DNA of 64,000 nucleotides, taken from assembly GCA_963707395.1 (NCBI GenBank), contig CAVPPQ010000020.1:262021-326020 (forward strand). Direction: 5' to 3'. The notes beneath the pieces were generated by a model. It was given only the letters and a program-made list of their open reading frames with translations, did no database searches and had not been told where the DNA came from. Positions 6,464-32,055 of the stretch are shown piece by piece; the first letter of the stretch is position 1; every line of letters begins with the position of its first letter. The stretch is from an uncultured Chloroflexia bacterium. GTDB taxonomy: Bacteria > Chloroflexota > Limnocylindria > Limnocylindrales > CSP1-4. The position numbers and the translations under genes are program-made.

Positions 6464-7345
6464 ATGCGCCGCCTCCGGTCCAGCGGCGACCGCCCCGTGG
6501 TGATCATCGGCAGTGGCGTGGCCGGCGTGGCCACGGCCGCATCGTTGCGATCCAGCGGCTACGGGGCCCGGGTCATCCTGGTCTCCGAGGAGTGTGTGCT
6601 GCCGTATCGGAGGTCGCTCCTTCCCACGTCCTACCTGCGCGGCGAGGTGTCACGCGAAGAACTGCTCATCCATCCTGCCGAGTGGTATCGAGAGGCCCGC
6701 GTCGACCTCCTGCTGGGCGCTCGCGCGATACGCATCGACCGGCGAGAGCGCACCCTCGAAGTCCGCGGCCATGGCGCCATCCCCTACCGCCGGCTCGTCC
6801 TTGCCACGGGCGTGCGTGAAGACATCCCGTTGGGGATCCGGGCGGCGTACGGGGTCGGGTCGATCCGAGCGGTCGACGCCCTTCGAGCAGCGGCGGAGCG
6901 TGCCCGGTCAGCGATCGTGGTCGGTGTGGGCCGGATGGCGTCCGAGGTGACGTGCTCTCTCACCATGCTCGGACTCGGCGTGACGCTGCTCGCTCCGGAA
7001 GACCTCGTGGGTCCTGTAGCTCTGGGCGCCGGCCGCTGCAAGATCGCCGTCACGACCGCTGCGGGCGTCACGCTGCGGGCGGACCTCATCGTCCGAGCCC
7101 TCCGGGGGCGGCCCGACTCGGAGCTCGCATCAGACACCGGCCTGTCATCGACCGAGGGCGGGCCGATGGATCCGGTCGGCATGACGATCGACCCGGCCAT
7201 CTTCGCCACCGGCGGGCTGCTCGGCATCACGGATGAGACCACGGCGGAGGCGCACGCGAGGTCCGTCGCCTGCGCGCTCATGGGGATGGACGTCATGCCT
7301 GCGATCGATGGGTGGCCTCCGGACCCTGCCGGCGCCACCGGCTGA
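6464..7345 (+). CDS. FAD-dependent pyridine-nucleotide oxidoreductase, ferredoxin/rubredoxin-reductase-like, short (C-terminal domain missing)
   Basis: VVIIGSGVAGVATAASL Rossmann motif; ...EECVLPYRRSLLPTSYL resembles the LPYxRPxLSK motif of ferredoxin reductases; only ~294 aa versus ~400 typical. Confidence 0.55.
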   Translation: MRRLRSSGDRPVVIIGSGVAGVATAASLRSSGYGARVILVSEECVLPYRRSLLPTSYLRGEVSREELLIHPAEWYREARVDLLLGARAIRIDRRERTLEVRGHGAIPYRRLVLATGVREDIPLGIRAAYGVGSIRAVDALRAAAERARSAIVVGVGRMASEVTCSLTMLGLGVTLLAPEDLVGPVALGAGRCKIAVTTAAGVTLRADLIVRALRGRPDSELASDTGLSSTEGGPMDPVGMTIDPAIFATGGLLGITDETTAEAHARSVACALMGMDVMPAIDGWPPDPAGATG

Positions 7346-7468
7346 ACGGGATCCACAACGCCCGGTGGTGAGTCGCCCCCAGGCAGATGTTTCCCTCGCC
7401 GGAGTCGCCGACCTACCTTCGAGTCGACCGGCGACAGCCGCCGGATGAGACCAGGGAGGACCCAAGAG

Positions 7469-9745
7469 ATGCAGGACGCTCATGCGCATCACCCGATCGC
7501 CGCCGGCGGTCCGTTCATCCATGGCGCCGGTGCCGGTGGTGGCGGCAGCCACTCGGACCACGTGACACTCGATCCGCGGCACGCTGGCCACGACATGAGT
7601 AGCCCGGCCGCCGCACCCCGAGGCCACGACGGCCACGGGACGCAGTCAGCCACCCCGGATCACACGGGTGTTGCAGCCCACTCCGGCCACACTCCCGTGA
7701 CCGATCACGCCGGCCACGCGGTCGCCCCCGGCCACGCCGGCCACGACCGGCACGAGGGCCACTCGGTCGCGATGTTCCGAGACCGGTTCTGGCTGAGCCT
7801 GCTGCTCACGATCCCCATCGTGCTGCTCAGCCACGACGTGGCGATGTGGCTGGGCTACGAGGTGCCGGCACTGCTCGGCGCGGCCTGGCTGCCGGCGATC
7901 CTGGGCACGATCGTGTTCAGCTACGGCGGAACGGTCTTCCTGCGCGGTGGCGTGCAGGAGCTGCGAGACCGGCAGCCGGGGATGATGACGCTCATCTCCA
8001 TGGCCATCGTGGTCGCGTTCGTGACCAGCTGGGCGGGCACTCTCGGTCTGTTCGAGGTCGAGATCTGGTGGGAGCTGGCCACCCTCGTCACGATCATGCT
8101 CCTCGGTCACTGGCTGGAGATGCGCTCCATCGCCCAGGCCCGCGGCGCGCTGAGCGTGCTGGCGGAGCTGCTCCCGGACGAGGCGGAGCGGGTGACGAGC
8201 GATGGCATCGAGACCGTGGCGCTCGCTGCGCTCATGCCCGGCGACGTCGTCCTGGTCCGCCCGGGCGCCCGGATCCCCGCGGATGGCACCGTCGCGGAGG
8301 GTGGCGCGGAGGTGGACGAATCGATGATCACCGGCGAGTCCCGACCGGTCGCGAAGGGTCCGGGAGACCCGGTGGTCGCGGGCACCGTCGCGGCGGGCGG
8401 CTCGCTCCGCATCCGCGTCACGGCCACGGGCGAGGCCACCGCGCTGTCGGGGATCATGCGCCTCGTCGCCGCCGCCCAGGCATCCGCCTCACGTGCGCAG
8501 GCGCTGGCCGACCGCGCCGCCGCGCTCCTGTTCTACGTCGCACTCGGTGCCGGCGCCGTCACGCTCGCCTACTGGTGGCTCCAGGGCGACCAGGAGGGTG
8601 CCCTCATCCGCACAGCCACGGTGCTGGTCATCGCCTGCCCCCACGCGCTGGGTCTCGCCATCCCGCTGGTGATCGCGATCTCGACCTCGCTCGGCGCCCG
8701 GAACGGCCTGCTCGTGAAGGACCGGATCACGCTGGAGCGCGCTCGGGAGCTCGACGTCGTCATCTTTGACAAGACGGGCACCCTCACCAAGGGTCGACCA
8801 GTGCTCGCGGACATCGCCGTCGCGGATGGGATGGACGCCTCCGAGCTGCTCGCGCTCACCGCGTCGGTGGAGGCTGAATCGGAGCATCCCCTGGCGCGTG
8901 CGATCGTCGAGGGATCCCACCATCGGGGGATCCAGCCCTTCGCGGCCACCGGGTTCGAGGCGCTCACCGGGCGCGGGGCCCGGGCCCTGGTGAACGGCGA
9001 GATGGTCCACGTCGGCGGACCCCGTCTGCTCGAGGAGCTGGCCGTCACCCCCGAACGCGAGCTGGCCAGCGCGACTGCCGCATGGGACGCCGAGGGCCGG
9101 ACGGTCCTCCACGTGGTCCGCCAAGGACGCGTCCTGGGCGCGGTGGCGGTCGAGGACGAGATCCGGCCGGAGTCCGCGGAAGCCGTCGAGCAGCTCCACG
9201 CGATGGGCCTGCGGGTCGCGCTGATCACCGGCGATGCGCAGGCGGTCGCCGACTCGGTGGCGAGGCAGCTGGGGATCGACGAGGTGGCGGCGCAGGTGCT
9301 GCCCGCCGACAAGGCGGACGCGGTGCGACGCTTCCAGGCCGGAGGCCGCCGCGTCGCGATGGTCGGCGACGGCGTGAACGACGCTCCCGCCCTGGCGACC
9401 GCCGACGTGGGCATCGCGATCGGGGCAGGGACGGACGTGGCGGTGGAGTCGGCGGGCATCGTGCTGGTCGCCAGCGACCCGCGTGACGTCGTGGGGGCGA
9501 TCCGGCTCTCAGGCGCGACCTACCGGAAGATGCAGGAGAACCTGGTCTGGGCGGCCGGCTACAACGTCCTGGCCATTCCGGTGGCCGCCGGCCTGCTCAT
9601 CCCCTGGGGCATCGACCTGCCGATGGCTGTGGGCGCGATCGCCATGAGCGTCTCCACCATCGTCGTGGCCGCCAACGCCCAGCTTCTCCGACGGGTGCGG
9701 CTCCGGCCGTCTCCGCGGGAGGCGACACTCGGCGGGGCGCTCTGA
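7469..9745 (+). CDS. heavy-metal translocating P1B-type ATPase, CopB-like (CPH motif, His-rich N-terminus)
   Basis: His-rich N-terminal tail (HAHHP...GHDGHG...HSGH...GHAGHDRHEGH), transmembrane CPH motif (VIACPHALGLAIP), DKTGTLT phosphorylation motif and GDGVNDAPAL hinge motif. Confidence 0.9.
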   Translation: MQDAHAHHPIAAGGPFIHGAGAGGGGSHSDHVTLDPRHAGHDMSSPAAAPRGHDGHGTQSATPDHTGVAAHSGHTPVTDHAGHAVAPGHAGHDRHEGHSVAMFRDRFWLSLLLTIPIVLLSHDVAMWLGYEVPALLGAAWLPAILGTIVFSYGGTVFLRGGVQELRDRQPGMMTLISMAIVVAFVTSWAGTLGLFEVEIWWELATLVTIMLLGHWLEMRSIAQARGALSVLAELLPDEAERVTSDGIETVALAALMPGDVVLVRPGARIPADGTVAEGGAEVDESMITGESRPVAKGPGDPVVAGTVAAGGSLRIRVTATGEATALSGIMRLVAAAQASASRAQALADRAAALLFYVALGAGAVTLAYWWLQGDQEGALIRTATVLVIACPHALGLAIPLVIAISTSLGARNGLLVKDRITLERARELDVVIFDKTGTLTKGRPVLADIAVADGMDASELLALTASVEAESEHPLARAIVEGSHHRGIQPFAATGFEALTGRGARALVNGEMVHVGGPRLLEELAVTPERELASATAAWDAEGRTVLHVVRQGRVLGAVAVEDEIRPESAEAVEQLHAMGLRVALITGDAQAVADSVARQLGIDEVAAQVLPADKADAVRRFQAGGRRVAMVGDGVNDAPALATADVGIAIGAGTDVAVESAGIVLVASDPRDVVGAIRLSGATYRKMQENLVWAAGYNVLAIPVAAGLLIPWGIDLPMAVGAIAMSVSTIVVAANAQLLRRVRLRPSPREATLGGAL

Positions 9746-15654: not shown

Positions 15655-16026
15655 CGGTCGGTGCCTCCCTCTCGGTCTCCCCGCAGGATGCTAGGTCATC
15701 GCCCGGATGAGAGCAACGGCCGGTCCGGGGGTCGGTCGGTCCACGGTCGTCGAGCGGCGATCGTCATGTGCGCGTGACATGGTCGGGGCGAGCGGGGTAG
15801 CGCCAGCTTGACCCACCTTAAGCCGGGCCAGAGCAGGTCCCTGAACGCTCCACGCAGCACCCGGTCGACTGATGCGAGCATCATGGCCCTGAGGCGTCTG
15901 GCGGGTCCTCGGCATCGCGCGCGGTGTGCTGGTACCGTGGAGGGGTCATGCAACGAGACGAGTCGATGGACGCGAGCCGGGTGCCGGCCGCGTCGCCGGT
16001 GGTGGCGGCCGGTCAGGGTCGCCCCG

Positions 16027-17403
16027 GTGGGCGGTGACCAGCACGACGTAGGCGCCGCTTCCGCCGCCGTCATCCCCGCCGAGCCCATAGATCGGATCCT
16101 GGCGCCCTTCCGCGAGTTCACGCGGAGCTCAGCTTCCGGCGGCCTGCTGCTCATGGCAGCCGCTGTGGTCGCCATGGTGCTGGCCAACTCGCCCTGGTCG
16201 GAGGCGTGGACAGCGCTCTGGGAGACCAAGCTCGAACTGTCGCTCGGATCGCTGAGCTTCTCGCAATCGCTGCTCCACTGGATCAATGACGGCCTCATGG
16301 CCATCTTCTTCCTGGTGGTCGGCCTCGAGATCAAGCGCGAGGTCCTGGTCGGTGAGCTGGCCTCGGTCCGCCGGGCCACGCTGCCCATCGTGGCAGCGAT
16401 CGGGGGCGCGATCGTGCCGGCCGTCATCTTCCTGGCGATCGCGGGGGGCGGCGAGGCAAGCCGCGGCTGGGGCATCCCCATGGCCACGGACATCGCGTTC
16501 GCCCTCGGGGTCCTCGCCATCCTCGGCTCGCGCATCCCCCTGGGCCTGCGCGTCTTCCTGGCCGCCCTGGCCATCGTGGACGACCTGCTCGCCGTGCTCG
16601 TCATCGCGCTCTTCTACACGTCCGACCTGTCGTTGCCTGCGCTCGCGGCTGCCGGCGTCATCCTGCTGGCGCTCATCGGGGCCAACGTCCTCGGTGTGCG
16701 CCGCCCACTCGTCTACGGCCTGCTTGGCGTCGCCCTCTGGGTGGCGGTCTTCCAGTCGGGCATCCACGCCACGGTCGCGGGCGTCCTGCTGGCCTTCACC
16801 ATCCCGGCTCGGACGCGCCTCGACTCCGACGCCTTCGTCGCGCGCGCGCGCCACATCGTGAACGACTTCGAAGGGCGCACGGTCGACGGTGAGGATGCCA
16901 GCACAGAGGAGCACCACGCGGCCCTCTGGGAACTGGAGGACGCCGCCGAGAAGGCGCAGGCCCCGATGCTCAGCATCGAGCACGCGCTGCAGCCCTGGAC
17001 GGCCTTCCTCATCGTGCCCCTCTTCGCCCTGGCCAACGCGGGCGTGGCCATCCGTGGCGAGCTGACCAGCATCGTCGTGGAGCCCGTGTTCCTGGGCGTC
17101 CTGCTCGGCCTCGTCATCGGCAAGCAGGTGGGCATCTCGCTCGCGGCCTACGCGGTCGTGCGCCTCGGGTTCGCCTCGCTGCCAGACGGTGTGCGCTGGC
17201 GCCACATCTACGGTGTGGCGTGGCTGGGCGGGATCGGCTTCACCATGAGCCTCTTCATCGCGGGGCTGGCGTTCGGCAACGGGCCGTCTCTGGATTTCGC
17301 CAAGGTCGGCATCCTGGCGGCCTCCATCGTGGCCGGCATCGGAGGCTATCTCGTACTCAGGCGGGGCACCATCGCGAGCTCACCCGGCTCCGACCCCGGC
17401 TAG
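16027..17403 (+). CDS. nhaA: Na+/H+ antiporter NhaA
   Basis: PIDRILAPFREFTRSSASGGLLL...WINDGLMAIFFLVVGLEIKRE...IPMATDIAFALGVLAILG are canonical NhaA motifs. The upstream part of the long ORF (from 15808) is non-coding-like; GTG at 16027 is taken as the start (approximate). Confidence 0.9.
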   Translation: MGGDQHDVGAASAAVIPAEPIDRILAPFREFTRSSASGGLLLMAAAVVAMVLANSPWSEAWTALWETKLELSLGSLSFSQSLLHWINDGLMAIFFLVVGLEIKREVLVGELASVRRATLPIVAAIGGAIVPAVIFLAIAGGGEASRGWGIPMATDIAFALGVLAILGSRIPLGLRVFLAALAIVDDLLAVLVIALFYTSDLSLPALAAAGVILLALIGANVLGVRRPLVYGLLGVALWVAVFQSGIHATVAGVLLAFTIPARTRLDSDAFVARARHIVNDFEGRTVDGEDASTEEHHAALWELEDAAEKAQAPMLSIEHALQPWTAFLIVPLFALANAGVAIRGELTSIVVEPVFLGVLLGLVIGKQVGISLAAYAVVRLGFASLPDGVRWRHIYGVAWLGGIGFTMSLFIAGLAFGNGPSLDFAKVGILAASIVAGIGGYLVLRRGTIASSPGSDPG

Positions 17404-22443: not shown

Positions 22444-22638
22444 CCAGTTGGTGCGGCTCCCGAAGGCGGACCTGCGCCTGTTCGCGTACCGTCCGCAACC
22501 TCCTCGTGCCCGACAAGCAGGACGAGTCGTGAGCGCCCGTCCCGTCTTCCGGAAACGGGACTCTGTCGCCGATGCGGCTCGGCGCTGTCGTGACATCTGG
22601 CCCTCACGGCGGTACAGGGTGCTTTCCACAATCTCGTC

Positions 22639-23037
22639 ATGCAGATCGTCGTCGGGGTGTTCATGGTCGTGATGGGAATCGGGATCGCTGGCGTCTGGAC
22701 GGTCGACATCGTCCGGAATCCATCGATCGACCGGACCCGAGGGCTCCTCCACGCGCGCGACAGCGCTGGAAGCGTGATGGTCCCTCACTGGATCGCCGAG
22801 TACGCCACGGCTCTCCTGTGCCTGGTCGGTGGACTGGGACTCGTGCTCGGCTGGACGTCCACGCCGTGGTCGTGGCTCGTTCCGATCGCGCTCGGGGCAC
22901 TGAGCTACACCTCGCTCAACAGCCTCAGCTGGGTGCTGGCCGACCGTTCGCGTCTGGCCTACGGTGTCCCGATGGCGATCGGCCTGATCGGGGCGCTGGT
23001 CGCGATCTTGCTGCTGCTCGCTGGTTCGCTCATCTGA
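22639..23037 (+). CDS. integral membrane protein (4 TM, hypothetical)
   Basis: 132 aa, MQIVVGVFMVVMGIGIAGVWTV..., hydrophobic helices separated by short loops. Confidence 0.5.
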   Translation: MQIVVGVFMVVMGIGIAGVWTVDIVRNPSIDRTRGLLHARDSAGSVMVPHWIAEYATALLCLVGGLGLVLGWTSTPWSWLVPIALGALSYTSLNSLSWVLADRSRLAYGVPMAIGLIGALVAILLLLAGSLI

Positions 23038-23085
23038 GCGTGCTTCCACGGTTGGCGCGAGGGCGCCGGGCACCGCGTCGTCGGG

Positions 23086-23330
23086 CCCCGAACGTCACCG
23101 ACGTCTGGTCGGTCAAGAAGGTGAACCCGCGGGCGATGGTCCACCTGACCGAGAAGTCCGCGGATCTCACGCGCCTCGCGATCGAGTACAGCTCACTGCC
23201 CGGTGAGGTGGTGCTCGACCTGTTCGGTGGCTCGGGGTCCGCGCTGATCGCCGCGGAGCAGACCGGCCGACGTGCCGGCCTCATGGAGATCGACCCGCTC
23301 TGCTGCGCGATATCTAGCCTCGCGTGGCTG
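23086..23330 (+). pseudogene. DNA (N6-adenine/N4-cytosine) methyltransferase fragment A (phage/plasmid type)
   Basis: ...MVHLTEKSADLTRLAIEYSSLPGEVVLDLFGGSGSALIAAEQTGRRAGLMEIDPLCC carries the HPTQKP-like and DPFxGSGTT SAM-binding motifs. The N-terminal DPPY region is absent and the frame degenerates at ~23320. Confidence 0.55.
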
Positions 23331-23339
23331 CCGACAGGC

Positions 23340-23807
23340 TCACCCCGACGCGGTCGCAGCCTCCTCCGCTGGCCGGGGCTGAGGCCCCAGCAGGAAGGCC
23401 TCCTCGGCGGCCGGGTCGAACATGTACGTGCGCTCAGCGACGACCTTACCGCGGCGCACCTCGGACACATCGATGCCACGCCCGACACGGGTCACGCCAG
23501 CCGCGTTCGTCTCGGTCACCTCGAACTCGCTGATGACGGTGTTCGTCAGCGTGAGCGCCCAAGGCTTGTCGAGAGCGGCATGGAGGATGCGGTAGTGGTA
23601 CACGGGGACCGCGTCGAACCACGCCTGCATCATCGCGCGCCAGGCAGCCTTGCCCTCGACCCGGCCACCGATGGGCGGGGGCCCCGGCTGCTCGAAGACC
23701 ACGTCGTCCGCGAGATACCGCTCGAAGTAGTCGAGGTCCCCGCGGTTGAGGGCATCCCAGCCGCGTCCCAGGCCGAGCTTGAGGATCAACGCTCCGATCA
23801 TCGTCAT
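23340..23807 (-). CDS. SnoaL-like / NTF2-like protein
   Basis: MTMIGALILKLGLGRGWDALNRGDLDYFERYLADDVVFEQPG... is a typical SnoaL_2-type sequence; it lies between the two methylase fragments. Confidence 0.55.
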   Translation of the reverse strand: MTMIGALILKLGLGRGWDALNRGDLDYFERYLADDVVFEQPGPPPIGGRVEGKAAWRAMMQAWFDAVPVYHYRILHAALDKPWALTLTNTVISEFEVTETNAAGVTRVGRGIDVSEVRRGKVVAERTYMFDPAAEEAFLLGPQPRPAEEAATASG

Positions 23808-23917
23808 CCCTCCTCCGTCACGGCCACGATGATCCCCGCTCGTGGGCGTGGGAAGGGCCATCGGTCGCGTGGTCCCTCTCGTCGCGGGACGCGCCACGGG
23901 GTGCGACCCACTCGGCA

Positions 23918-24343
23918 TCACTTGCCCTTGCGCACGTGCGCCTTCTTGGGCCCGTGGTCGCTGTTCTTCGCGGCGATCACGAGCCCCGCGGGCTCGGCGC
24001 GCGGGCAGGTGACCCAAGCGTAGAGTCCGACCTCTCCGACAGCACCTTCCCTGACGCCGGCCACGGGCCACGTGTTGCTGTCAAGGGGCAGTGAGGCCCA
24101 GACAGTCGCGTCGGCCATGCCTGTGGCAGTGCCCGACAGGTTGTACCCACCCCCCACGGCGAAGAAACCCGAGGGACAGTCAGCAGTGTCTTCCGCCTCG
24201 ATCAACTGAGTGAGGACCGCGGGTGTCTCGGACACAACCGTCTTGAACTTGACCGCCGTCATCCCCTCGTTGTCCACGTTGTCGGCGAAGTCAGCCGGCT
24301 TGTTGGCGATGTCGCCCCAGACGGGGCGGCGTGGCTTCGGCAT
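23918..24343 (-). CDS. collagen-like protein family, paralog 3 (C-terminal domain only; lacks signal peptide and Gly-X-Y tract)
   Basis: MPKPRRPVWGDIANKPADFADNVDNEGMTAVKF...VGGGYNLSG...KKAHVRKGK aligns with the PAGFADGVDxxGxTG motif and C-terminal domain of paralogs 1 and 2. Confidence 0.6.
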   Translation of the reverse strand: MPKPRRPVWGDIANKPADFADNVDNEGMTAVKFKTVVSETPAVLTQLIEAEDTADCPSGFFAVGGGYNLSGTATGMADATVWASLPLDSNTWPVAGVREGAVGEVGLYAWVTCPRAEPAGLVIAAKNSDHGPKKAHVRKGK

Positions 24344-24446
24344 GGAGCTGGACTCGCTGTACTGCGACACGATCATCGAGCGGTTCGAGCGGTTCACCGG
24401 CACGAAGGCCGAGCGCGTCCCGGCGCCCGCCGCGGCGGCAGCCTGA
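24342..24446 (+). pseudogene. DNA methyltransferase C-terminal tail fragment B
   Basis: MELDSLYCDTIIERFERFTGTKAERV... corresponds to the ...EIDPxYCDxxIxRWExFTG... C-terminal end of phage methylases. Its stop overlaps the start of the terminase small subunit (TGATG). Confidence 0.4.
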
Positions 24447-24883
24447 TGGGCCGCCGCGGACCAGCCCCCACACCGACCGGGGTGAAGCTCCACCAGGGCG
24501 AGACACGACCCTCGCGGATCAACCGCCTCGAGCCCCTCCCCCGCCGTGCCGCACCCCAGATGCCACGCGGCATGGACCGCGACGCGCAGAAGGTGTGGCG
24601 GCGGGTGGTCCGAGAGATGCGCGGCTCCGACGTCATCCTCGCCGCGGACGCCGACGTGCTGCGCTGCTATGTCGAGGCGGTCGCCCGCTACGCGCAGGCG
24701 GCGGAGCTGTACGCGAAGTCCTCGCCGCTGATGCGCCGCGACGGCGAACTCGTGAGAGCTCTTCGAAGGCACCGGCTCGGCCTGACGGGCCAGAGGCCGA
24801 CCTCTGGCACGGGCACGCAGGCTGGACGGCCCTGTGACCTCTCATCGCTCGATGACACACTTACTGGTGAGATATCACCCTGA
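24446..24883 (+). CDS. phage terminase small subunit, P27 family
   Basis: MGRRGPAPTPTGVKLHQGETRPSRINRLEPLP...AQKVWRRVVREM...LRCYVEAVARYAQAAELYAKSSPL matches the P27-family pattern (RGPKPTPTxLKxLxG...W..L...L..YC.A...Y). Confidence 0.75.
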   Translation: MGRRGPAPTPTGVKLHQGETRPSRINRLEPLPRRAAPQMPRGMDRDAQKVWRRVVREMRGSDVILAADADVLRCYVEAVARYAQAAELYAKSSPLMRRDGELVRALRRHRLGLTGQRPTSGTGTQAGRPCDLSSLDDTLTGEISP

Positions 24884-24895
24884 CGGAGGACCCGC

Positions 24896-25408
24896 GTGGA
24901 CCACGCTCCCGCCCGCATCGGTGCCGTGCGCCCCAAGCACCCGGCGCAGCCGGTGTACCTGCTGGACGTCCGCGCGGTCCGCGGCGAGCGGACGCGCGCT
25001 GACGGCGCTCTCTGGGACGGCGTCCTCAACGCCACCCCGGACGACACGAATGACGCGCCCTCGCCCATCGAGGCGCTCATGGCCGCGCTGGCCGGATGCC
25101 TCGTGCGCAACCTGCGGTCGATGGCGGATGGACGTCGTATCACCCTCGAGCGTGCCGACCTCCACATCGCCGCGACCCGCTCGGACGACCCGCCGGTCGT
25201 GACCTCGCTCATCGTGGACCTCGACGTCGTCGCGGACGCCGAGCCGGAACGCATCCATCGGATGGTCGAGCAGGCGCTCCGCTACGGGACCATCACGCGG
25301 ACGATCGCCCGGGCCTGCCCGCTCGTCATCAACCTGTCGATCGGCGGAGTGCCCACCGCACTCGATGTCGAGGCCATCCTGATACTTACCCCGGAGGAGG
25401 GACGATGA
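24896..25408 (+). CDS. OsmC/Ohr-family protein (peroxiredoxin-like)
   Basis: PSPIEALMAALAGCLVRNLRS... and ...VEQALRYGTITRTIARACPLVINL show the two conserved Cys regions of OsmC/Ohr. The stop overlaps the ACR3 start (ATGA). Confidence 0.75.
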   Translation: MDHAPARIGAVRPKHPAQPVYLLDVRAVRGERTRADGALWDGVLNATPDDTNDAPSPIEALMAALAGCLVRNLRSMADGRRITLERADLHIAATRSDDPPVVTSLIVDLDVVADAEPERIHRMVEQALRYGTITRTIARACPLVINLSIGGVPTALDVEAILILTPEEGR

Positions 25409-26517
25409 CCGCCAGCCGCCTGCTCGAGAAGCTCGAGGACTTCCGCTTGCTGCCGATCTTCGTCATCGTCAGCATGGCCATCGGCATCGCCATCGGCAAG
25501 GCGCTCTCGATCTCGGACTTCGAGCTGACCCCGCCCATCGATGCCATCAAGTCGATCGCGGCTGGCACGTTCGAGCTCTCAGTCCCGAGCGCCCTCAGCC
25601 TCGGGGTGCCCATCGGGCTCTTCCTGATGATGTACCCGGCCATGACCAACGTGCGCCTCGGCGAGGTCGGGTCGGCCTTCCGCTCCCCCCGGCAATTGGG
25701 CGTGGTCCTCCTCTTCAACTACCTCGTCGCACCCTTCCTCATGCTGCTGCTGGCGAACCTCTTCGTGAGCGACCCCGAGCTGCACACGGGCCTCGTGCTC
25801 TACGGCCTGGCCCCCTGTATCGCGATGGTCATCGTCTTCACGTACCTCGCCAAGGGCAACGTGCCCATGGCCCTCGTCTTCGTGGCCATCAACTCGGTGG
25901 CGCAGATGCTGCTCATCCCGGTCTATGCGCGCCTGCTCATCGGGAACGTCGACTTCGACGTCCTCGTGGTCGGCGAGAGCGTCCTCCTCTACCTCGGCTT
26001 GCCCTTGGTCGCGGGGGTGCTGACCCGGATGCTCGTCGTGCGGCGGGGTGGAGAGGCGGCCATGGAGCGGCTCAAGCCAGGTCTCAACGCGCTCTCGATC
26101 CTGGGGCTCCTGTTCACGCTCATCGTCATGTTCTCCCTCAAGGGCGACCTCATCCTCGAGCGGCCGGGCATCGTGGTCGAGATGGCCATCCCCATGACCA
26201 TCTTCTTCGCGGCCATGTTCTTCGTGGTCCTCTTCATCGGCTCGCGCCTGCACTTTTCCTACGAGGACGGCGTGGCGGTGGCCTTCAACACGACGGGGCG
26301 CGACTTCGAGATCGCCATCGCCATCGCCATCACCGCCTTCAGCCCGACCGTCGCCCTCGCCACCGTCGTGGGGCCGCTCATCGAGGTCCCGATCATGCTG
26401 TTCCTCGTGTGGGCTGCGATGCGTCTGCGGCCGCGCCTCTTCCCCGGCGCCGCGGGTGGCGCGGTCCGCGGTGAGCGGGATGCGCCCATCGCGAGCCCGG
26501 AGGGCGCCACGACATGA
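25405..26517 (+). CDS. acr3: ACR3-family arsenite efflux transporter
   Basis: MTASRLLEKLEDFRLLPIFVIVSMAIGIAIGK...LFLMMYPAMTNVRL...PCIAMVIVFTYLAKGN, ~370 aa, 10 TM; RBS GGAGGAGGGACG. Confidence 0.85.
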   Translation: MTASRLLEKLEDFRLLPIFVIVSMAIGIAIGKALSISDFELTPPIDAIKSIAAGTFELSVPSALSLGVPIGLFLMMYPAMTNVRLGEVGSAFRSPRQLGVVLLFNYLVAPFLMLLLANLFVSDPELHTGLVLYGLAPCIAMVIVFTYLAKGNVPMALVFVAINSVAQMLLIPVYARLLIGNVDFDVLVVGESVLLYLGLPLVAGVLTRMLVVRRGGEAAMERLKPGLNALSILGLLFTLIVMFSLKGDLILERPGIVVEMAIPMTIFFAAMFFVVLFIGSRLHFSYEDGVAVAFNTTGRDFEIAIAIAITAFSPTVALATVVGPLIEVPIMLFLVWAAMRLRPRLFPGAAGGAVRGERDAPIASPEGATT

Positions 26518-26852
26518 TCGACGAGCGCTCGACCCTGCCACTCGTGCCCGAGCTGCGCTTCGACCTGGAGCGGCCGGACGTACGCGACGCCGTGCGCCTC
26601 GGCGCCCTCGTCGGCGACCCCGTCCGGGCCGGCATCCTGGCCATCCTGCGTGACGGCCCCCATTGCGTCTGCGAGATGGCCGCCGCCCTCGGTGAGCGTC
26701 AGAACAACGTGAGCAACCACCTCGCCAAGCTGCGCGAGGCCGGCCTCGTCCGGGCCAGCCGTCACGGTGCCGATGCCCGCTGGGTCTATTACGAGCGGGA
26801 CGAGACTGCCATCGAGGTCGCCGCACAGGCCATGGCGGGGATCCTGCGATGA
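26514..26852 (+). CDS. arsR: ArsR/SmtB-family metalloregulator
   Basis: ...LGALVGDPVRAGILAILRDGPHCVCEMAAALGERQNNVSNHLAKLREAGLV gives an HTH plus a CVC metal(loid)-binding motif. Start overlaps the ACR3 stop. Confidence 0.85.
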   Translation: MIDERSTLPLVPELRFDLERPDVRDAVRLGALVGDPVRAGILAILRDGPHCVCEMAAALGERQNNVSNHLAKLREAGLVRASRHGADARWVYYERDETAIEVAAQAMAGILR

Positions 26853-27886
26853 CGACGGTCGTCGCGCATCGAGCGCACCTGCCGTTCTGGGTGGTGGCTG
26901 CCGGCGGCGTGGCGGCCTGGCTCGTGGCCTGGGTCCTCCTGGCCCCTGCCGTGGACTGGCTGACGACGGACGTGCTGGGGCTGGACACGAGCGAGGGCTT
27001 CGGAGCGTCGCTGGCCTTCTTCCTCTTCGACCTGCCCAAGGTGCTCTTGCTCCTCGTCGGGGTGGTCACGCTGGTGAGCTTCCTGCGCTCGTTCGTGTCA
27101 CCCGAGCGCGTGCGGCGCACGCTGGCGGGCCGCAACGTCGTCGTGGGCGCCGCGGCGGCGGCCGGCTTCGGGGTCATCACTCCCTTCTGCTCCTGTTCCG
27201 CGGTGCCGCTCTTCATCGGCTTCGTCGAGGCCGGGGTCCCACTGGGGGTCACGTTCGCCTTCCTCATCTCGGCACCGATGGTCAATGAGGTCGCGCTCGT
27301 GCTCCTCTGGGGTCTCTTCGGTCCGGGCATCGCGGTGGCCTACCTGGTCGCTGGCCTGCTCGTCGCCATCGGGGCCGGGCTGGTGGTCGGACGTCTCCGC
27401 CTGGAGCGCTTCGTGGAGCCCTACGTCTACGAGGTCCGCGCAGGTGCCGCCATCGAGTTCCGACCCACGATGGAGCAGCGCGTGCGCGACGCCTGGGATT
27501 CGACGCGCCAGTTGGTGCGGCGGATCGCTCCCTGGGTCGTCATCGGCATCGCGTTGGGATCGCTCATCCATGGCTATGCGCCGACCGACCTCGTGGCCTC
27601 CATCGGCGGCCGCGACAATCCGCTCGCGGTGCCGCTCGTGGTCATGCTGGGCGTGCCGCTCTACGCCAACGCGGCGGGCACCATCCCCATCGTCGAGGCG
27701 CTCCTGGGCAAGGGCGTGCCCATCGGCACGGTGCTCGCCTTCATGATGGCCGTCACGGCCCTCTCGCTGCCCGAGCTGCTCATCCTGCGGCGGGTCATGC
27801 GCCGGGAGCTCATCGCCACGTTCGTCATCGTGGTCGCGGGCGGCATCCTCGCCGTCGGCTACCTGTTCAACATCTTCGCCACCTGA
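26849..27886 (+). CDS. DUF318/ArsP-like permease (TPFCSCS motif)
   Basis: 345 aa polytopic membrane protein with ...GFGVITPFCSCSAVPLFIGFVEAGVPLG...; the TPFCSCS motif is characteristic of ArsP-type organoarsenical permeases and their partners of small thioredoxin-like proteins. Confidence 0.75.
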   Translation: MTTVVAHRAHLPFWVVAAGGVAAWLVAWVLLAPAVDWLTTDVLGLDTSEGFGASLAFFLFDLPKVLLLLVGVVTLVSFLRSFVSPERVRRTLAGRNVVVGAAAAAGFGVITPFCSCSAVPLFIGFVEAGVPLGVTFAFLISAPMVNEVALVLLWGLFGPGIAVAYLVAGLLVAIGAGLVVGRLRLERFVEPYVYEVRAGAAIEFRPTMEQRVRDAWDSTRQLVRRIAPWVVIGIALGSLIHGYAPTDLVASIGGRDNPLAVPLVVMLGVPLYANAAGTIPIVEALLGKGVPIGTVLAFMMAVTALSLPELLILRRVMRRELIATFVIVVAGGILAVGYLFNIFAT

Positions 27887-27897
27887 AGGGGGAACAC

Positions 27898-28155
27898 ATG
27901 GTCAGTATCGAGATCCTCGGTCACGGCTGCGATAACTGCCGACGCCTGGAGCAGAACGCCCGCGACGCGGCGGCCATGGCCGGCGTCGAGGCCGACATCG
28001 TCAAGGTTGCCGACGACCGCGAGATCGCCGCCCGGGGCGTCCTGCGCACCCCCGGTCTCGTCATCGACGGGAAGGTCATGAGCGCCGGCCGCGTGCCATC
28101 GGCCGGGGACATCGCGGAGTGGCTGAGCCAGACGGGTGTGCCACGCCCCGCGTAG
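27898..28155 (+). CDS. small thioredoxin-fold protein (redox-active disulfide protein, CxxC)
   Basis: MVSIEILGHGCDNCRRLEQNARDAA... is the 85-aa family usually encoded next to DUF318 permeases. Confidence 0.75.
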   Translation: MVSIEILGHGCDNCRRLEQNARDAAAMAGVEADIVKVADDREIAARGVLRTPGLVIDGKVMSAGRVPSAGDIAEWLSQTGVPRPA

Positions 28156-28731
28156 TGGTTCCGGTCGGCTTCCCGCACACCCGTACGGTCCCTCGCTTGA
28201 CGCCCGCCTGACCGCCCCGTAGACCGGAGGGCGTGCACGCACGTCTTCCCCTCCTCCTCGCGCGTCGGGCCGGGTCGGTGCCCCCAGCCCGGCCGACGCG
28301 CTAAGCCTCGTGAGCCCCGTCGAGCTCGTCCTCTTCGGGGCCCTGTGCTACGTCTTCGGCCTGGTCAGTGGTGCTGTCCTCATCCCCTGGCTCGTGGACC
28401 GGGGCCAACCCGCCCGTGCTCGTGCCGTTGCTCCTCACCGCTGCTGGCCTGCTCTCGGTCGACCTGCCTGGCGTGCGCCACTGTGGCCCGACAGCCACGC
28501 CATCAACGGAGACTGGAGCCGGCGGAGGTCGTCGCGTACCTGCGCTCGCTGCCGTCGCTCTGGACCGATGCAGGACCCGAAGGACGCCAGGCGCTGGCCG
28601 TGGCGCTGTTCGCCAAGCTCGAAGTGGAGGAGTACCAGAAGATGACCTACGAACTCACATCCGATGCCGTGGAACTCGGTCTCAGCGCGGCACTACCCGC
28701 GGTGCTGGAGACCGGTGGTCAGATCGGTGAG

Positions 28732-28810
<79 letters not shown>

Positions 28811-28937
28811 ACCGAGGAGCCCGCGGCGTCACGCGCCTGCGGGGACTGTGGAGTATAGGACACGGAACCATCGCAGCGCGCCGGACAGACCGACCGGCCC
28901 GGATTACATCATATCCACCACGTTGTATCATCCGAGG

Positions 28938-29180
28938 GTGGAACGCACGCAGATATCCCTGACGCCGCGCCAAGCCCGCCGGCTGCGCCAGCTTGCCAGG
29001 CACCGCGGGACGTCCATGGCATCGCTCATCCGCGACGCAGTGGAGCGCGTCTATCCGGAACCCCGCGACCGTGCGGATCCGTGGGATCGTGCCCTGCAGT
29101 CGGTCGGCCGTTTCCGGTCGGGGCAAGTGGACGTCAGCGCGGAGCACGACCGCGACTTGGCAGACGCCTTCGGCGAGTGA
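28938..29180 (+). CDS. vapB: ribbon-helix-helix (CopG-family) antitoxin, VapB-like
   Basis: [39 protein letters not shown] is an RHH fold; GTG start; stop overlaps the vapC start (GTGA). Confidence 0.7.
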
Positions 29181-29578
29181 GTGTCTTCGTCGATACCTCG
29201 GCCCTCTACGCGCTCCTCGACGCGGACGACGCGAGCCACGCGGCTGCCCGGCGGACGTTCGAGGGTCTCCGGGGCGGCGTGCTGACGACTCACGCCTATG
29301 TGGTCGTGGAGTCGCTGGCGCTGGTCTCGCGGCGCCTCGGTCGAGCGGCCGCCCTGCACCTGATGGATGGCCTGCTGCCGGTCATCGACGTCCTGCCCGT
29401 CGATGCCGCACTCCACGCCCTGGCCATGACTGCCTATCGGGAGTCGAGCGACATTCGCCTCAGCTTCGTCGACCGGACCAGCTTCGCGTTCATGCGCCTC
29501 CATGGCATCGAGACCGCCTTCGCCTTCGATGCGGACTTCGCCCGTGCAGGGCTGTTGACCATCCCGGGCGAGGCCTGA
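29177..29578 (+). CDS. vapC: PIN-domain ribonuclease toxin VapC
   Basis: [24 protein letters not shown]...[15 protein letters not shown]...[26 protein letters not shown] supplies the conserved PIN acidic residues. Confidence 0.85.
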
Positions 29579-29584
29579 TCCCCG

Positions 29585-30766
29585 TCAGTCGGCCGTGCCG
29601 GCCCCTGCATGGTCCGCGACCCCGGCGGCCGCGAACCGGGGATTGGTCTCCGCCGACCGGACGCGAGGCACGACGGCAGCCACCACGACCGAGGCCACGG
29701 CGAAGAGTCCCATGGCCATCGAGATGCCAGCCGAGTCCGAGGTCAGGCCGATGAGCGGCGGCCCGACCATGAAGGTCAGGGTCAGGAACGTGAAGGCTGC
29801 CGATAGCGACGGCCCGGCGGGCCTGATGCGCGCGGCCGCGCCGAAGAGCTGCGGGATGGCGTTGGCGACACCGATCCCAGCGACCACCATGCCCACGAGG
29901 GCCACGACCGCGCTGCCCACCACCAGGAAGGCCGTGATGGCCGCCGCGGTCAGGAGCATGCCCCACTGGATGAGGCGGATGGAGCCGACGCGGTCCTTGA
30001 CCCAGTCGCCGCCGACGCGCCCGAGGAAGAGCCCCAGCGAAAGCGCCGCGTAGGCGAAGGCCGCCACCTCGCCGGAGGTGCCGATGCCCTGCCGCAGGTA
30101 GATGCCGCCCCAGTCGGTCAGCCCGCCCTCCACGAAGGCGAGCAGGATGATGAGCAGGCAGATGGGCAGCACCGCCCGCGCAGGGAGGTGGATGCCGCTG
30201 GCGCCCTCCGTGCGCAGGGAGCCCTGCCCCAACGACCGTCCCGCGACCAGCACCACCAGCCACAGCAGCAGGCTGGCCAGCAGCGCCTCGACGACCACGT
30301 CCACGCCCAGGGACACGGCCACGCCCACGCCCACCGCGCCGATGATGCCGCCCAACGACCAGCCCGCGTGGAGGCCGGAGAAGATGGACGTGCCGCCCTG
30401 CGTCTCAAGGGCCACGCCGTGCGCGTTCATGGAGACGTCCATGGCCGTGTTGAACGCGCCGAAGACGATCATGACGCCGGCCAGGACCAGGGGGTCGGGG
30501 GCCAGCATGGGCAGCACCGTGAGCAGCGGGAAGACCAGCCCGGCCGCCATGACCATGCGGCGGCTGGAAACGCGCACGAGCAGCTGGCCGGTGACCTGCT
30601 GGGAGATGAGAGCGCCGAGCGCGGCGCAGAAGAGGACCAGGCCCATCTCCGTCGCGGTGGCCCCAAGGTCCGTCTTGATGCCCGGGATGGCAGCCACCCA
30701 GGTGCCCACCACGGCGCCGTTGACGACGAAGACGAGGAAGGTGGCGAGGCGCGGCGACATCGTCAT
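29585..30766 (-). CDS. MFS transporter (12 TM)
   Basis: 393 aa; MSPRLATFLVFVVNGAVVGTWVAAIPGIKTDLGATATEMGLVLF...; paralog of the next gene. Confidence 0.85.
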   Translation of the reverse strand: MTMSPRLATFLVFVVNGAVVGTWVAAIPGIKTDLGATATEMGLVLFCAALGALISQQVTGQLLVRVSSRRMVMAAGLVFPLLTVLPMLAPDPLVLAGVMIVFGAFNTAMDVSMNAHGVALETQGGTSIFSGLHAGWSLGGIIGAVGVGVAVSLGVDVVVEALLASLLLWLVVLVAGRSLGQGSLRTEGASGIHLPARAVLPICLLIILLAFVEGGLTDWGGIYLRQGIGTSGEVAAFAYAALSLGLFLGRVGGDWVKDRVGSIRLIQWGMLLTAAAITAFLVVGSAVVALVGMVVAGIGVANAIPQLFGAAARIRPAGPSLSAAFTFLTLTFMVGPPLIGLTSDSAGISMAMGLFAVASVVVAAVVPRVRSAETNPRFAAAGVADHAGAGTAD

Positions 30767-30775
30767 CGCGGGCCC

Positions 30776-31936
30776 CTAGACCAACGGCTCCGTGGCCACG
30801 GGCGGGGCGAAGCGCGCGTTGGTCTCGATGGAGGGCACGCGTCCGACCCCGACGGCGATGAGCAGGACGGCCACGACCGGGAGCCACATCGCGACCCGGA
30901 TGCCGACCGCATCCGAGACGACGCCCATGATGGCCGGCTCGACCATGAAGGTCAGCGTGGAGAAGGCGAAGACGGCCGAGAGCGAGGGGCCCACGGGTCT
31001 GATGCGCCCGGCCGCGCCATACATCTGCGGGTAATTGTTGGCCAGGCCGATGCCGGTGATGGTCATGCCGATGAGGGCCAGGTAGGGGTTGCCGACGACG
31101 AGGAACGTGGTCATGGCGACGGCCGCCACGAGCGTGCCGGCCTGCATGAGGCGCACCGACCCGACGCGGTCCTTGAGCGCGTCGCCCGTCGAACGGCCCA
31201 ACAGCAGGCCCAGGGAGTACGCGGCGAAGGCGAAGGCCGCCAGCTGCGCGCTCGCGCCCAGGCCCTGCCGCAGGTAGACGCCGCCCCAATCGCCCATGCC
31301 GCCCGCGGCGAAGGCCACGGGGATGATGAGGAGGGCGAGAGGCAGTGCTCGCCGCGAGGGCAGGTGGATGCCGCTGGCGCCCTCCGTGCGCCGCGAACCG
31401 GTGCCGATGCGCCGGATGACGAGCGCGACCACGAGCCAGAGGATCGCACCGATCACGACAGCCTCCAGGGCGCCGTCGACCCCGAAGCTGGTGGCCAGGG
31501 CCACGGCCATGGCGCCGCCGAAGGCACCCAGCGACCAGCCCGCGTGCAGGGTGGAGACGATCGAGCGTCCATCCTTGGTCTCGATGGCCACGCCGTGCGC
31601 GTTCATGGAGAGATCCATGGTGGCGTTGACGTAGCCGAAGGCGAACATGACGGCCGCCAGGATGAGGGGCTCCGGAGCCAGTCGGAAGAGGGGCACCATG
31701 AGGGGAAAGAGCAGCGCGCCCACCATGGCGATGCGCCGGCTGGAGTAGCGCACCAGGAGCTGTCCCGTCACCTGCTGGCCGATGAGCGACCCCAGGGCCG
31801 CGACGAGCAGCACGAGGCCGAGCTCCGTGGCGGACATGCCCAGCCGGGCCTGCACGCCGGGGATGGATGACACCCAGGTGCCCAGCACGACGCCGTTCAC
31901 GAAGAAGATGACGAGGGTGGCGAGCCGCGGGGTCAT
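30776..31936 (-). CDS. MFS transporter (12 TM), tandem paralog
   Basis: MTPRLATLVIFFVNGVVLGTWVSSIPGVQARLGMSATELGLVLL... is about 55-60% identical to the preceding MFS gene. Confidence 0.85.
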   Translation of the reverse strand: MTPRLATLVIFFVNGVVLGTWVSSIPGVQARLGMSATELGLVLLVAALGSLIGQQVTGQLLVRYSSRRIAMVGALLFPLMVPLFRLAPEPLILAAVMFAFGYVNATMDLSMNAHGVAIETKDGRSIVSTLHAGWSLGAFGGAMAVALATSFGVDGALEAVVIGAILWLVVALVIRRIGTGSRRTEGASGIHLPSRRALPLALLIIPVAFAAGGMGDWGGVYLRQGLGASAQLAAFAFAAYSLGLLLGRSTGDALKDRVGSVRLMQAGTLVAAVAMTTFLVVGNPYLALIGMTITGIGLANNYPQMYGAAGRIRPVGPSLSAVFAFSTLTFMVEPAIMGVVSDAVGIRVAMWLPVVAVLLIAVGVGRVPSIETNARFAPPVATEPLV

Positions 31937-32055
31937 GGACGGTTCCGGGTCGCGGTCAGGGGGCGGTACGACGCCGCGGGCCACGCGCGCCTGCCGCTGG
32001 CCTGCGCCCGACAGCCGCTCGTCTCCGGCTCGGCGTCACGGCCGGCCATCCGGTA

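Follow-up and report, generated by a model that had tools for sequence, protein, structure and literature searches.

Which stress does an operon answer when its repressor carries the cysteine pair of an arsenic sensor, its two membrane proteins belong to exporter families of different scope, and its first gene encodes an OsmC-like protein with one conserved cysteine? This question is raised by a cassette of five genes at positions 24896-28155 of a stretch of 64,000 nucleotides (nt) from an uncultured Chloroflexia bacterium of the Limnocylindrales lineage (contig CAVPPQ010000020.1, positions 262,021 to 326,020), which is referred to here as the window. An earlier note on this DNA had described the genes as an atypical arsenic-type cassette without the arsenate reductase ArsC. 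Our analysis indicates that the cassette is, on balance, an ArsR-repressed resistance operon against a metalloid, most likely arsenic, which would combine two exporters with two cytoplasmic thiol proteins. The metalloid and thiol theme of the note is upheld by the family memberships and cysteine motifs of the encoded proteins. ArsR, the ACR3-like transporter, ArsP and ArsE are of known kinds; the linkage to a one-Cys OsmC-like protein is undescribed in the searchable literature.

All five genes are located on the forward strand. The first one (24896-25408) has a GTG start codon and encodes the OsmC-like protein of 170 amino acids (aa; Pfam family PF02566, 55.8 bits, cut-off 27.5). It is followed by the genes for an ACR3-like transporter of the SBF fold (25405-26517; 370 aa; SBF PF01758, 150.7 bits; TIGR00832 acr3, 245.8 bits), a repressor of the ArsR/SmtB family (26514-26852; 112 aa; HTH_5 PF01022, 54 bits; NF033788, 71.2 bits), a permease of the ArsP_1 family, formerly DUF318 (26849-27886; 345 aa; PF03773, 224 bits), and a thioredoxin-like protein of the MTH895/ArsE family (27898-28155; 85 aa; Thioredoxin_3 PF13192, 83.7 bits; TIGR00412, 85.7 bits). 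A ribosome-binding site of the OsmC-like gene, GGAGGA, lies at 24885-24890. The co-directional and coupled arrangement reported in the note can be read directly from the open reading frames and from the three ATGA start/stop overlaps at 25405-25408, 26514-26517 and 26849-26852; only the thioredoxin gene is set off by a gap of 11 nt, which contains the ribosome-binding site AAGGGGGAA. Since all genes are full length in comparison to their homologues, and since the ratios of non-synonymous to synonymous substitution rates (dN/dS) against the nearest relatives range from 0.09 to 0.25 (OsmC-like gene, 0.19-0.25; ACR3-like gene, 0.09; permease gene, 0.11), the five genes are, by these measures, functional and under purifying selection. 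The five-gene block also recurs as a unit in relatives with 75-89% nucleotide identity, which together with the low dN/dS values argues that the arrangement is not due to chance.

The fold assignment of the OsmC-like protein is supported by its AlphaFold2 model (predicted local distance difference test score 84.9), for which Foldseek ranked only OsmC/Ohr structures at the top. The resemblance to solved structures is distant, however, with 12-20% identity and a best profile E-value of 5e-5 against the PDB. Alignments of 20 and 116 sequences revealed that Cys68 is the sole invariant cysteine among the relatives. Cys68 and Glu59 are present in 116 of 116 sequences, Arg71, Asn72, Thr33, Gly37 and Asp50 are likewise invariant, and Arg95, Asp97 and Arg32 (the latter in 112 of 116) are nearly so; the protein also contains an RSDDPP motif. 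The position of the resolving cysteine, which would stand at the start of the next helix and corresponds to the cysteine of the "KRCP" sequence in 1LQL, is occupied by Tyr130 in the window and by Tyr, Thr, Ser, Asp or Met, never by Cys, across the 116 sequences, and the second cysteine of the window protein, Cys141, is a cysteine in only 30 of them. Because the resolving cysteine is absent throughout and Cys141 is not conserved, the OsmC-like protein is, judged from these alignments, not a 2-Cys OsmC/Ohr peroxidase. The label "OsmC/Ohr thiol peroxidase-like" given to it earlier is appropriate for the OsmC fold and for the peroxidatic Cys, Glu and Arg residues; the implied 2-Cys peroxidase has to be given up. 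Like the OsmC/Ohr thiol peroxidases of PF02566, the protein has its cysteine on a long helix, a glutamate nine residues before it and a near-invariant arginine upstream; it differs from them by the missing resolving cysteine, by additional invariant Arg, Asn and Asp residues and by the location of its genes, which belong to metal(loid) efflux operons and are not controlled in the manner of OhrR or sigma-S regulons. When 1.84 billion representative proteins were searched with a profile, 12 matches below 1e-30 were obtained, four of which were full-length clusters, before the scores became those of generic OsmC proteins; by this criterion, the clade is small and discrete. It is almost entirely confined to Chloroflexota. 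Membership in the OsmC-related (seleno)protein family NF041052 (OsmC_like_Se) was ruled out by score (36.1 bits, cut-off 95), and three long "fusion" relatives (P0138, P0142 and P0144) are not domain fusions but artefacts of frameshifts or of read-through in low-complexity sequence. In full-text searches of the literature, no publication came up that connects an OsmC-family gene with ars operons.

To which genes the OsmC-like gene is tied was compared in 28 non-redundant loci, the window included; loci of relatives are cited below by L numbers. The OsmC gene adjoins the gene for a CVC-type ArsR in 23 of the 28 loci. ArsP_1 and Thioredoxin_3 proteins are encoded in 15 loci and always together, Thioredoxin_3 coming after ArsP_1, TauE in 13, an FmdE-like zinc-ribbon protein in eight, usually as an FmdE-TauE pair, an ACR3 of the window type in eight, a third type of SBF protein in six and a TehB-like methyltransferase in five. 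ArsM and LMWP-type ArsC each occur in four loci, canonical ACR3 in two, and a small cysteine-rich DUF2180 protein, whose gene leads the operon in several cases, in six; genes for ArsM, TauE, FmdE and DUF2180 are missing from the 64-kb window. The identities of ArsM, of the MerR-ArsC and ArsR-ArsC proteins and of canonical ACR3 in these loci held up on checking. The gene orders vary and include OsmC-ACR3-ArsR-ArsP-thioredoxin (Trx), TauE-OsmC-ArsR-ArsP-Trx-Trx, ArsP-Trx-ArsR-OsmC-methyltransferase and ACR3-ArsR-OsmC, a variation that speaks for selection acting on the linkage itself. ArsR, ArsP_1, thioredoxin and OsmC make up the core, to which the ACR3-like gene has been added. In L038, the genes ACR3-ArsR-ArsP-Trx share 86% nucleotide identity with the window and are preceded by a divergent MerR-ArsC gene. 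The operator described below and the last ~10 codons of the OsmC gene (MDFLAPTPEERP*) are kept in front of the ACR3-like gene (L038:7930-8003), while the OsmC gene itself is gone; on this sequence evidence, L038 is a clean OsmC deletion derivative. The OsmC gene is thus dispensable, as this near relative keeps the operon after the deletion.

Two of these partners show features of their own. The FmdE-TauE pair takes the position of the ArsP-Trx pair in L009, L036 and L037; such pairs are located at L009:7973-9360, L036:8379-9766, L016:6686-8046, L027:7741-9077, L035:6403-7797 and L048:4400-5794, and one is found beside one-Cys OsmC genes on a betaproteobacterial plasmid. The DUF2180 protein has ~75 aa and the pattern M.CHECAR..CR.C.V.LCK.HLV...PQY.CDHHP.RPF. 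Its gene, the first of the operon in several relatives, is located at L010:3463-3684, L013:5753-5974, L016:4348-4512, L027:4321-4485 and L030:5415-5576 and is degenerate in L001 and L009.

A similar linkage exists outside the Chloroflexota. Searching plasmids by tblastn revealed a distant clade of one-Cys OsmC proteins, which are ~25% identical to the window protein, share its E-x8-C, R-x-D-x-PP and YGTI motifs, possess a single cysteine and are labelled by NCBI as "OsmC family protein" only. A plasmid of Neotabrizicola shimadae encodes ArsR (with HCVCEL), the permease (TPFCSCS), the thioredoxin (GCKKC), OsmC and a CDF protein in this order, between arsJ/GAPDH and arsH/ACR3 genes. The order on a Loktanella plasmid is ArsR-permease-thioredoxin-hypothetical protein-OsmC, and Pseudorhizobium banfieldiae NT-26, a model arsenite oxidiser, has a plasmid with permease-thioredoxin-rhodanese-OsmC-P-type ATPase beside ArsR-ArsC-ArsC-ACR3. 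Two of these three alphaproteobacterial permease-thioredoxin-OsmC copies (Neotabrizicola and NT-26) are located in or beside explicit arsenic gene clusters. A Sulfuricella plasmid has thioredoxin-CcdA-OsmC-TauE-FmdE after an RND pump, and an Agrobacterium plasmid has RcnR-like-DUF1289-OsmC-VIT with CDF genes nearby; the linkages of the plasmid-borne one-Cys OsmC genes are always found in metal(loid) resistance islands. To judge from these gene orders, the linkage of one-Cys OsmC with ArsR(CVC)-ArsP-ArsE and with TauE-FmdE is ancient or has been repeatedly selected.

The repressor possesses the sequence HCVCE in helix alpha3 and no further cysteine, and its winged-helix ArsR/SmtB domain is confirmed by a score above the NF033788 cut-off of 55 bits. 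In R773 ArsR, the alpha3 CxC pair consists of Cys32 and Cys34. The CVC site, which had already been recognised in the note, is aligned to the alpha3 cysteine position of SmtB/CadC and is invariant in all aligned full-length ArsR copies that adjoin an OsmC gene; HCVCE is also found in the Neotabrizicola copy. A metal site of the CmtR type was ruled out, as the alpha4 ligand cysteines of CmtR are replaced.

A putative operator/promoter for this repressor is located at 24833-24879 of the forward strand, just upstream of the ribosome-binding site and 17-63 nt upstream of the OsmC start codon. It consists of two dyads, the first of which (24833-24859) reads TGTGAC..TCATCG-ct-CGATGA-CACA and the second of which (24866-24879) reads GGTGAgATaTCACC, also written GGTGAGATATCACC. 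The region can be aligned with the upstream regions of L009, L010, L013, L036 and L038, and the changes in dyad 2 of L010 compensate each other (TTGATGAGACATCAA, as against GTGATGAGACATCAC in L009). Generalised to TCA[GT]N5-8TGA[GC]A[CT], the pattern is found 30 times across the 28 loci, compared with 4.45 +/- 2 times in shuffled sequences (~7-fold enrichment); most copies closely precede the module's first gene, whichever gene that is. This distribution fits autoregulation by the CVC-type ArsR, which would bind to these dyads. The earlier proposal of one operon under ArsR control is supported by the translational coupling and the conserved upstream element. The note had suggested looking for an operator upstream of both 24896 and 26849; the putative dyads answer to the first position, and a second operator at 26849 is impossible because the genes overlap and leave no intergenic DNA. 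A further copy of the pattern, TCATGTGCGCGTGACAT, is found at 15764-15780 (forward strand), where it overlaps the start of a reading frame (15778-17403) that encodes an NhaA Na+/H+ antiporter domain from residue 113 onward. As about one such match is expected by chance in the window, this copy is probably coincidental.

The second gene had been called a canonical ACR3 and the third a canonical ArsR. The latter description is supported by the CVC site; the transporter, however, scores below the equivalog cut-off of TIGR00832 (245.8 versus 282.8 bits), as does the same-clade protein in L016 (241.4 bits), whereas canonical ACR3s of sister loci reach 458.9 bits (L030) and 446.1 bits (L028) and are only 33-37% identical to the window protein. 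Two features of the family are retained. The conserved transport residues, whose roles are known from Acr3 of C. glutamicum, in which they are required, and of A. metalliredigens, are the cysteine in the motif (R/P)C(I/T)AMV and the glutamate in FE(L/I)AIA. The ACR3-like protein has Cys138 in the sequence GLAPCIAMV, a cysteine being present in 14 of 14 aligned ACR3-like sequences, and keeps the glutamate motif as DFEIAIAIA. The clade to which it belongs is abundant (>120 clusters at 80-95% identity), and its members are named "arsenic resistance protein" or "bile acid:sodium symporter" by NCBI. They are also encoded in simple operons, namely MerR-LMWP-ArsC-ACR3 (L039-L041), ArsR-ACR3 (L042) and MerR-ArsC / ACR3-ArsR-ArsP-Trx (L038). 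The protein is thus assigned to a divergent ACR3-like clade and is, by family and context, a probable As(III) exporter; arsenite export is still the best guess because the Cys and Glu residues are kept and the clade pairs with ArsR or MerR-ArsC fusions. In comparison to known arsR-acr3(-arsC) operons, the cassette likewise encodes a repressor with a CVC pair within the operon that it probably controls, and its SBF-fold carrier retains the ACR3 residues and comes from a clade found in ArsR-ACR3 and ArsC-ACR3 pairs. It differs in that the carrier falls below the ACR3 cut-off, ArsC is missing from the window and the gene order is OsmC-ACR3-ArsR.

The permease matches PF03773, the family of ArsP (TC 2.A.119), over its full length (profile positions 6-293 of 294). 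Its TPFCSCS motif contains Cys114 and Cys116, both of which are present on alignment in 15 of 15 orthologues, so that the conserved cysteine pair expected for an ArsP-type protein is indeed there; in ArsP, the residues are Cys65 and Cys67. To our knowledge, ArsP of C. jejuni is the only characterised exporter of trivalent methylarsenite (MAs(III)). The comparison with ArsP organoarsenical exporters made in the note holds for the motif and the ArsP_1 family; it does not hold for organoarsenical specificity, as the Cys-Ser-Cys (CSC) motif is shared with Cu/Zn exporters. The best NCBIfam matches of the permease are SaoE (130 bits, cut-off 325) and SO_0444 (114.2 bits, cut-off 300), and membership in either family was ruled out by these scores. 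The SAO system of Clostridia (SaoE and SaoT) similarly pairs an ArsP-family CSC permease with a small thioredoxin-like protein, but the window permease scores 130 instead of 325 bits, the other SAO genes and the selenoproteins are absent, and phylum and context are different.

The partner of the permease exceeds the cut-off of 62 bits for TIGR00412, "MTH895/ArsE", and has the CxxC motif GCDNC. This motif is kept in 19 of 20 aligned thioredoxin orthologues, the exception being a degenerate duplicate copy in L015. An operon of ArsR, ArsP and ArsE in Pseudodesulfovibrio mercurii ND132 is induced by As(III) and As(V) (preprint 10.1101/2022.10.17.512643). The three genes of the window belong to the same three families in the same order as ArsR5-ArsP-ArsE of this strain, with a CSC permease and a CxxC thioredoxin; in contrast to the latter, the trio of the window is joined to ACR3-like and one-Cys OsmC-like genes. 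The permease/thioredoxin pair had earlier been described as widespread yet functionally undefined. Adjacency and CxxC motif were found as described, and the pair does have a name and a context by now: its thioredoxin family is called MTH895/ArsE by NCBI, and the ArsR-ArsP-ArsE arrangement responds to arsenic in P. mercurii.

How could the five proteins act together? An ArsR dimer would occupy the dyad operator at 24833-24879 and would come off the DNA once its CVC pair has bound As(III) or another thiophilic species akin to it. The ACR3-like carrier, to go by family and context, would extrude As(III), and the ArsP_1 permease, via its membrane-embedded Cys-Ser-Cys, may extrude a second thiol-reactive trivalent species, either an organoarsenical or a soft metal. 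ArsE, with its CxxC motif, and the one-Cys OsmC-like protein might form a thiol redox pair, in which ArsE would provide the missing resolving thiol; this is the least certain step of the model. Such a pair could remove metalloid-induced peroxide or sulfenate damage, keep the cysteines of the permease reduced, or do both.

Several observations weigh against an arsenic resistance operon of this kind. Canonical arsenic genes (ArsC, ArsM and true ACR3) are a minority among the neighbours in the 28 loci, and no role in arsenic resistance is established for TauE and FmdE, the most frequent of the other partners. The proteobacterial copies adjoin metal transporters of the CDF, P-type ATPase, RND and VIT types, and L038 is also found together with CDF genes. 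The best solved relative of the repressor is the Cd/Pb sensor CmtR. The proposed pairing of OsmC with ArsE is challenged by L009, L017, L027, L030 and L036, in which OsmC occurs without Thioredoxin_3. Furthermore, the CSC motif is family-wide and common to the SO_0444 Cu/Zn exporters and SaoE (Haft preprint); therefore, the motif does not identify the substrate of the permease.

These observations lead to the alternative that survives best, namely that the ArsR-ArsP_1-thioredoxin-OsmC core is not specific for arsenic and serves against other thiophilic stress, such as Cd/Zn/Cu/Hg-type cations, Se/Te oxyanions or reactive sulfur species, and that it entered arsenic islands through the clustering of resistance genes. 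We consider this unlikely but far from negligible. A permease whose CSC motif is common to the SO_0444 Cu/Zn efflux family, and whose best NCBIfam matches are SaoE and SO_0444, would suit such a role, as would the metal neighbours of the module: CDF in L038 and Neotabrizicola, a P-type ATPase in NT-26, RND and CcdA in Sulfuricella, and VIT, DmeF and an RcnR-like protein in Agrobacterium. Further neighbours point in the same direction, among them a TehB-like methyltransferase, a chromate transporter, the "sulfite exporter" TauE, rhodanese and an MBL-fold hydrolase, and a sister OsmC clade is encoded beside a Pyr_redox_2 disulfide reductase, FmdE and TauE. An operon for sulfide detoxification with a TauE-like exporter among its products is under the control of BigR, a member of the ArsR family. 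However, the repressor of the window has the CVC pair in alpha3 and lacks all the ligands that the Cd/Zn/Ni sensors or BigR use at the N terminus, in alpha4 or in alpha5, and translational coupling ties the module to an ACR3-like gene from a clade that is found paired with ArsC fusions. The recurrence of ArsM, ArsC, canonical ACR3, arsH and arsJ as neighbours and the arsenic induction of ArsR-ArsP-ArsE in P. mercurii likewise speak for arsenic and against a general thiophilic stress.

A resistance operon against arsenic could also assign a more active part to its first gene. The one-Cys OsmC-like protein would then be a new arsenical-transforming enzyme with ArsE as its dedicated redox partner, a proposal that we regard as rather improbable and that can take two forms. 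Arsenite is classically used to reduce sulfenic acids selectively. In the oxidase form, a peroxide-made sulfenate at Cys68 would be reduced by As(III) or MAs(III), thereby detoxifying peroxide and trivalent arsenical in one step. In the reductase form, the OsmC-like protein would catalyse the thiol-dependent reduction of As(V) or pentavalent methylarsenate (MAs(V)); we know of no bacterial methylarsenate reductase that has been identified.

The reductase form touches the question of the missing ArsC. The statement that the cassette is without ArsC is correct for the window: for ArsC of the Grx type (PF03960) and the LMWP/Trx type (PF01451), tblastn searches of the 64 kb with R773- and pI258-type queries gave no match better than E = 1.5, and the LMWP ArsC of L011, which comes from the same lineage, gave no match. 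As a lasting trait of such operons, the absence is doubtful. LMWP ArsC is present in the relatives L010, L011, L016, L026 and L038-L041, and a divergent MerR-LMWP ArsC fusion is encoded just upstream of the operon core in L038 and, upstream of the DUF2180 leader gene, in L010. Because L010 and L038 carry MerR-ArsC where the window has a truncated terminase gene, the lack of ArsC looks secondary and local. MerR-fused LMWP ArsC proteins were found at L010:1956-3293 (a misjoined reading frame call, with the ArsC match at 2574-2909), L011:4219-5055, L038:6954-7796 and L039/L040:~7141-7965, in L039-L041 directly in front of the ACR3-like gene, and an LMWP ArsC fused to an ArsR-type domain at L016:8344-9033. 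These fused proteins may be arsenate-sensing regulators, bifunctional proteins or both.

If the OsmC-like protein instead occupies the slot of ArsC, it would be a one-Cys reductase of As(V) or MAs(V) that is recycled by ArsE or by a low-molecular-weight thiol, a reading to which we give slightly less credence again. It draws on trios that resemble arsRBC operons, namely ACR3-ArsR-OsmC in L016, L017 and L027, DUF2180-ArsR-OsmC-canonical ACR3 in L030 and the window itself, and on the lack of ArsC within 64 kb in the window and within ~6-10 kb in L036 and L037. The single invariant Cys together with Arg71, Arg95 and the near-invariant Arg32, without a resolving Cys, would also be in keeping with such an enzyme; R773 ArsC and Acr2p likewise have one Cys with Arg residues. 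Several of the neighbouring "ArsC" proteins are fused to DNA-binding domains of the MerR or ArsR type and may be regulators and not enzymes. A simple replacement of ArsC is nevertheless weakened by the co-occurrence of OsmC with LMWP ArsC in L010, L011, L016, L026 and the NT-26 plasmid and by L038, which has lost OsmC and kept the rest of the operon. In addition, the wider one-Cys clade is found in non-arsenic metal clusters with VIT, CDF or RND transporters, and the Glu-Cys pair typical of the peroxidatic sites of OsmC/Ohr proteins has been kept. If it were true, the OsmC-like protein would represent a further convergent arsenate-reductase fold. That the OsmC-like gene is an unrelated stress gene, placed upstream by chance and without a functional link to the ars genes, is very improbable: the operon of L038 shows it to be dispensable and ArsR is not directly beside OsmC in L018, L020, L022, L024, L025 and L032, but the two adjoin in 23 of 28 loci in several gene orders, the operator motif precedes OsmC-containing operons, the gene overlaps the ACR3-like gene by 4 nt, and the linkage is found again in Alphaproteobacteria, where the protein is only 25% identical.

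The genomic setting suggests how the cassette came to its place. The window has a G+C content of ~70%, and the nearest relatives of the cassette genes come from metagenome-assembled genomes labelled Chloroflexia, Limnocylindria or Limnocylindrales, which points to a probable host of the Limnocylindria type within the Chloroflexota. Directly upstream lies a phage small-terminase gene (24446-24883, forward strand), the reading frame of which extends into the operator region; its Terminase_4 match covers only profile positions 1-50 of 98, that is, the N-terminal half. The reading frames upstream of the terminase gene (22572-24446) resemble fragments of DNA methylase C-termini; a SnoaL-like gene is likewise found upstream. 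Terminase remnant and methylase fragments look like a decayed prophage that abuts the cassette. Downstream, a tRNA-Pro(CGG) gene is located at 28734-28810 on the reverse strand, 580 nt from the cassette; it was the only match of an Rfam scan, in which no riboswitch or leader was found. Nucleotide homology to the five-gene relatives L001, L010 and L013 ends at the edges of the cassette (~24895/24914 to 28125), while the match to L036 covers 24769-26833 and that to L038 covers 25377-28125. The 5' part is closest to the L036 operon OsmC-ACR3-ArsR-FmdE-TauE and the 3' part to the L038 operon ACR3-ArsR-ArsP-Trx. From these matches, the cassette looks like a mosaic and like the cargo of a phage-like or integrated element that has decayed and adjoins tRNA-Pro. 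Searches of its flanks for direct or inverted repeats found none, and there is no sign of a discrete transposon.

The 3' end carries a conserved non-coding segment (28159-28301, forward strand). Its first 116 nt (28159-28274), which follow the thioredoxin gene, are ~81-83% identical by blastn and alignment to the sequence that follows TauE in L009, despite the differing preceding genes. Within the segment lies a promoter-like pair, TTGACG...TAGACC, and its end is formed by a G+C-rich hairpin with 19-nt arms (28260-28278 and 28283-28301), which may be the terminator of the operon. A scan of 24600-28800 for sigma-70 promoters and T-run terminators found nothing, as is to be expected at 70% G+C outside the model organisms; this result does not count against a promoter. 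Beyond the segment, a reading frame fragment at 28345-28755 (forward strand) runs into tRNA-Pro and has no Pfam match; its end is presumably similar to the C-terminal part of large serine recombinases, a similarity that, if confirmed, would fit an integration site. It is followed by a gene for a PIN-domain (VapC-like) toxin (29081-29578, forward strand), which is preceded by a short reading frame (~28900-29084) that reads like a ribbon-helix-helix antitoxin, so that the two are a probable toxin-antitoxin pair. Two tandem MFS transporter paralogues are encoded beyond this pair on the reverse strand (29585-30766 and 30776-31984).

Arsenic operons are among the best-catalogued detoxification systems, yet new arsenic chemistry has come to light time and again through new accessory genes such as arsH, arsI, arsJ, arsN and arsP. 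The cassette adds to them a discrete clade of one-Cys OsmC-like proteins that is tied to a CVC-type ArsR, an ArsP-type permease and an ArsE-type thioredoxin in Chloroflexota and on alphaproteobacterial plasmids, including that of NT-26. If the OsmC-like protein is only a stress peroxidase, the outcome would be a modest improvement of annotation. The module could, however, help to assign a function to the widespread and biochemically undefined permease/thioredoxin pair, and if the OsmC-like protein does transform arsenicals, ArsR-ArsP-ArsE-OsmC would be a four-part machine for arsenical redox chemistry and export that spans phyla, and the OsmC-like gene would merit an ars name of its own.

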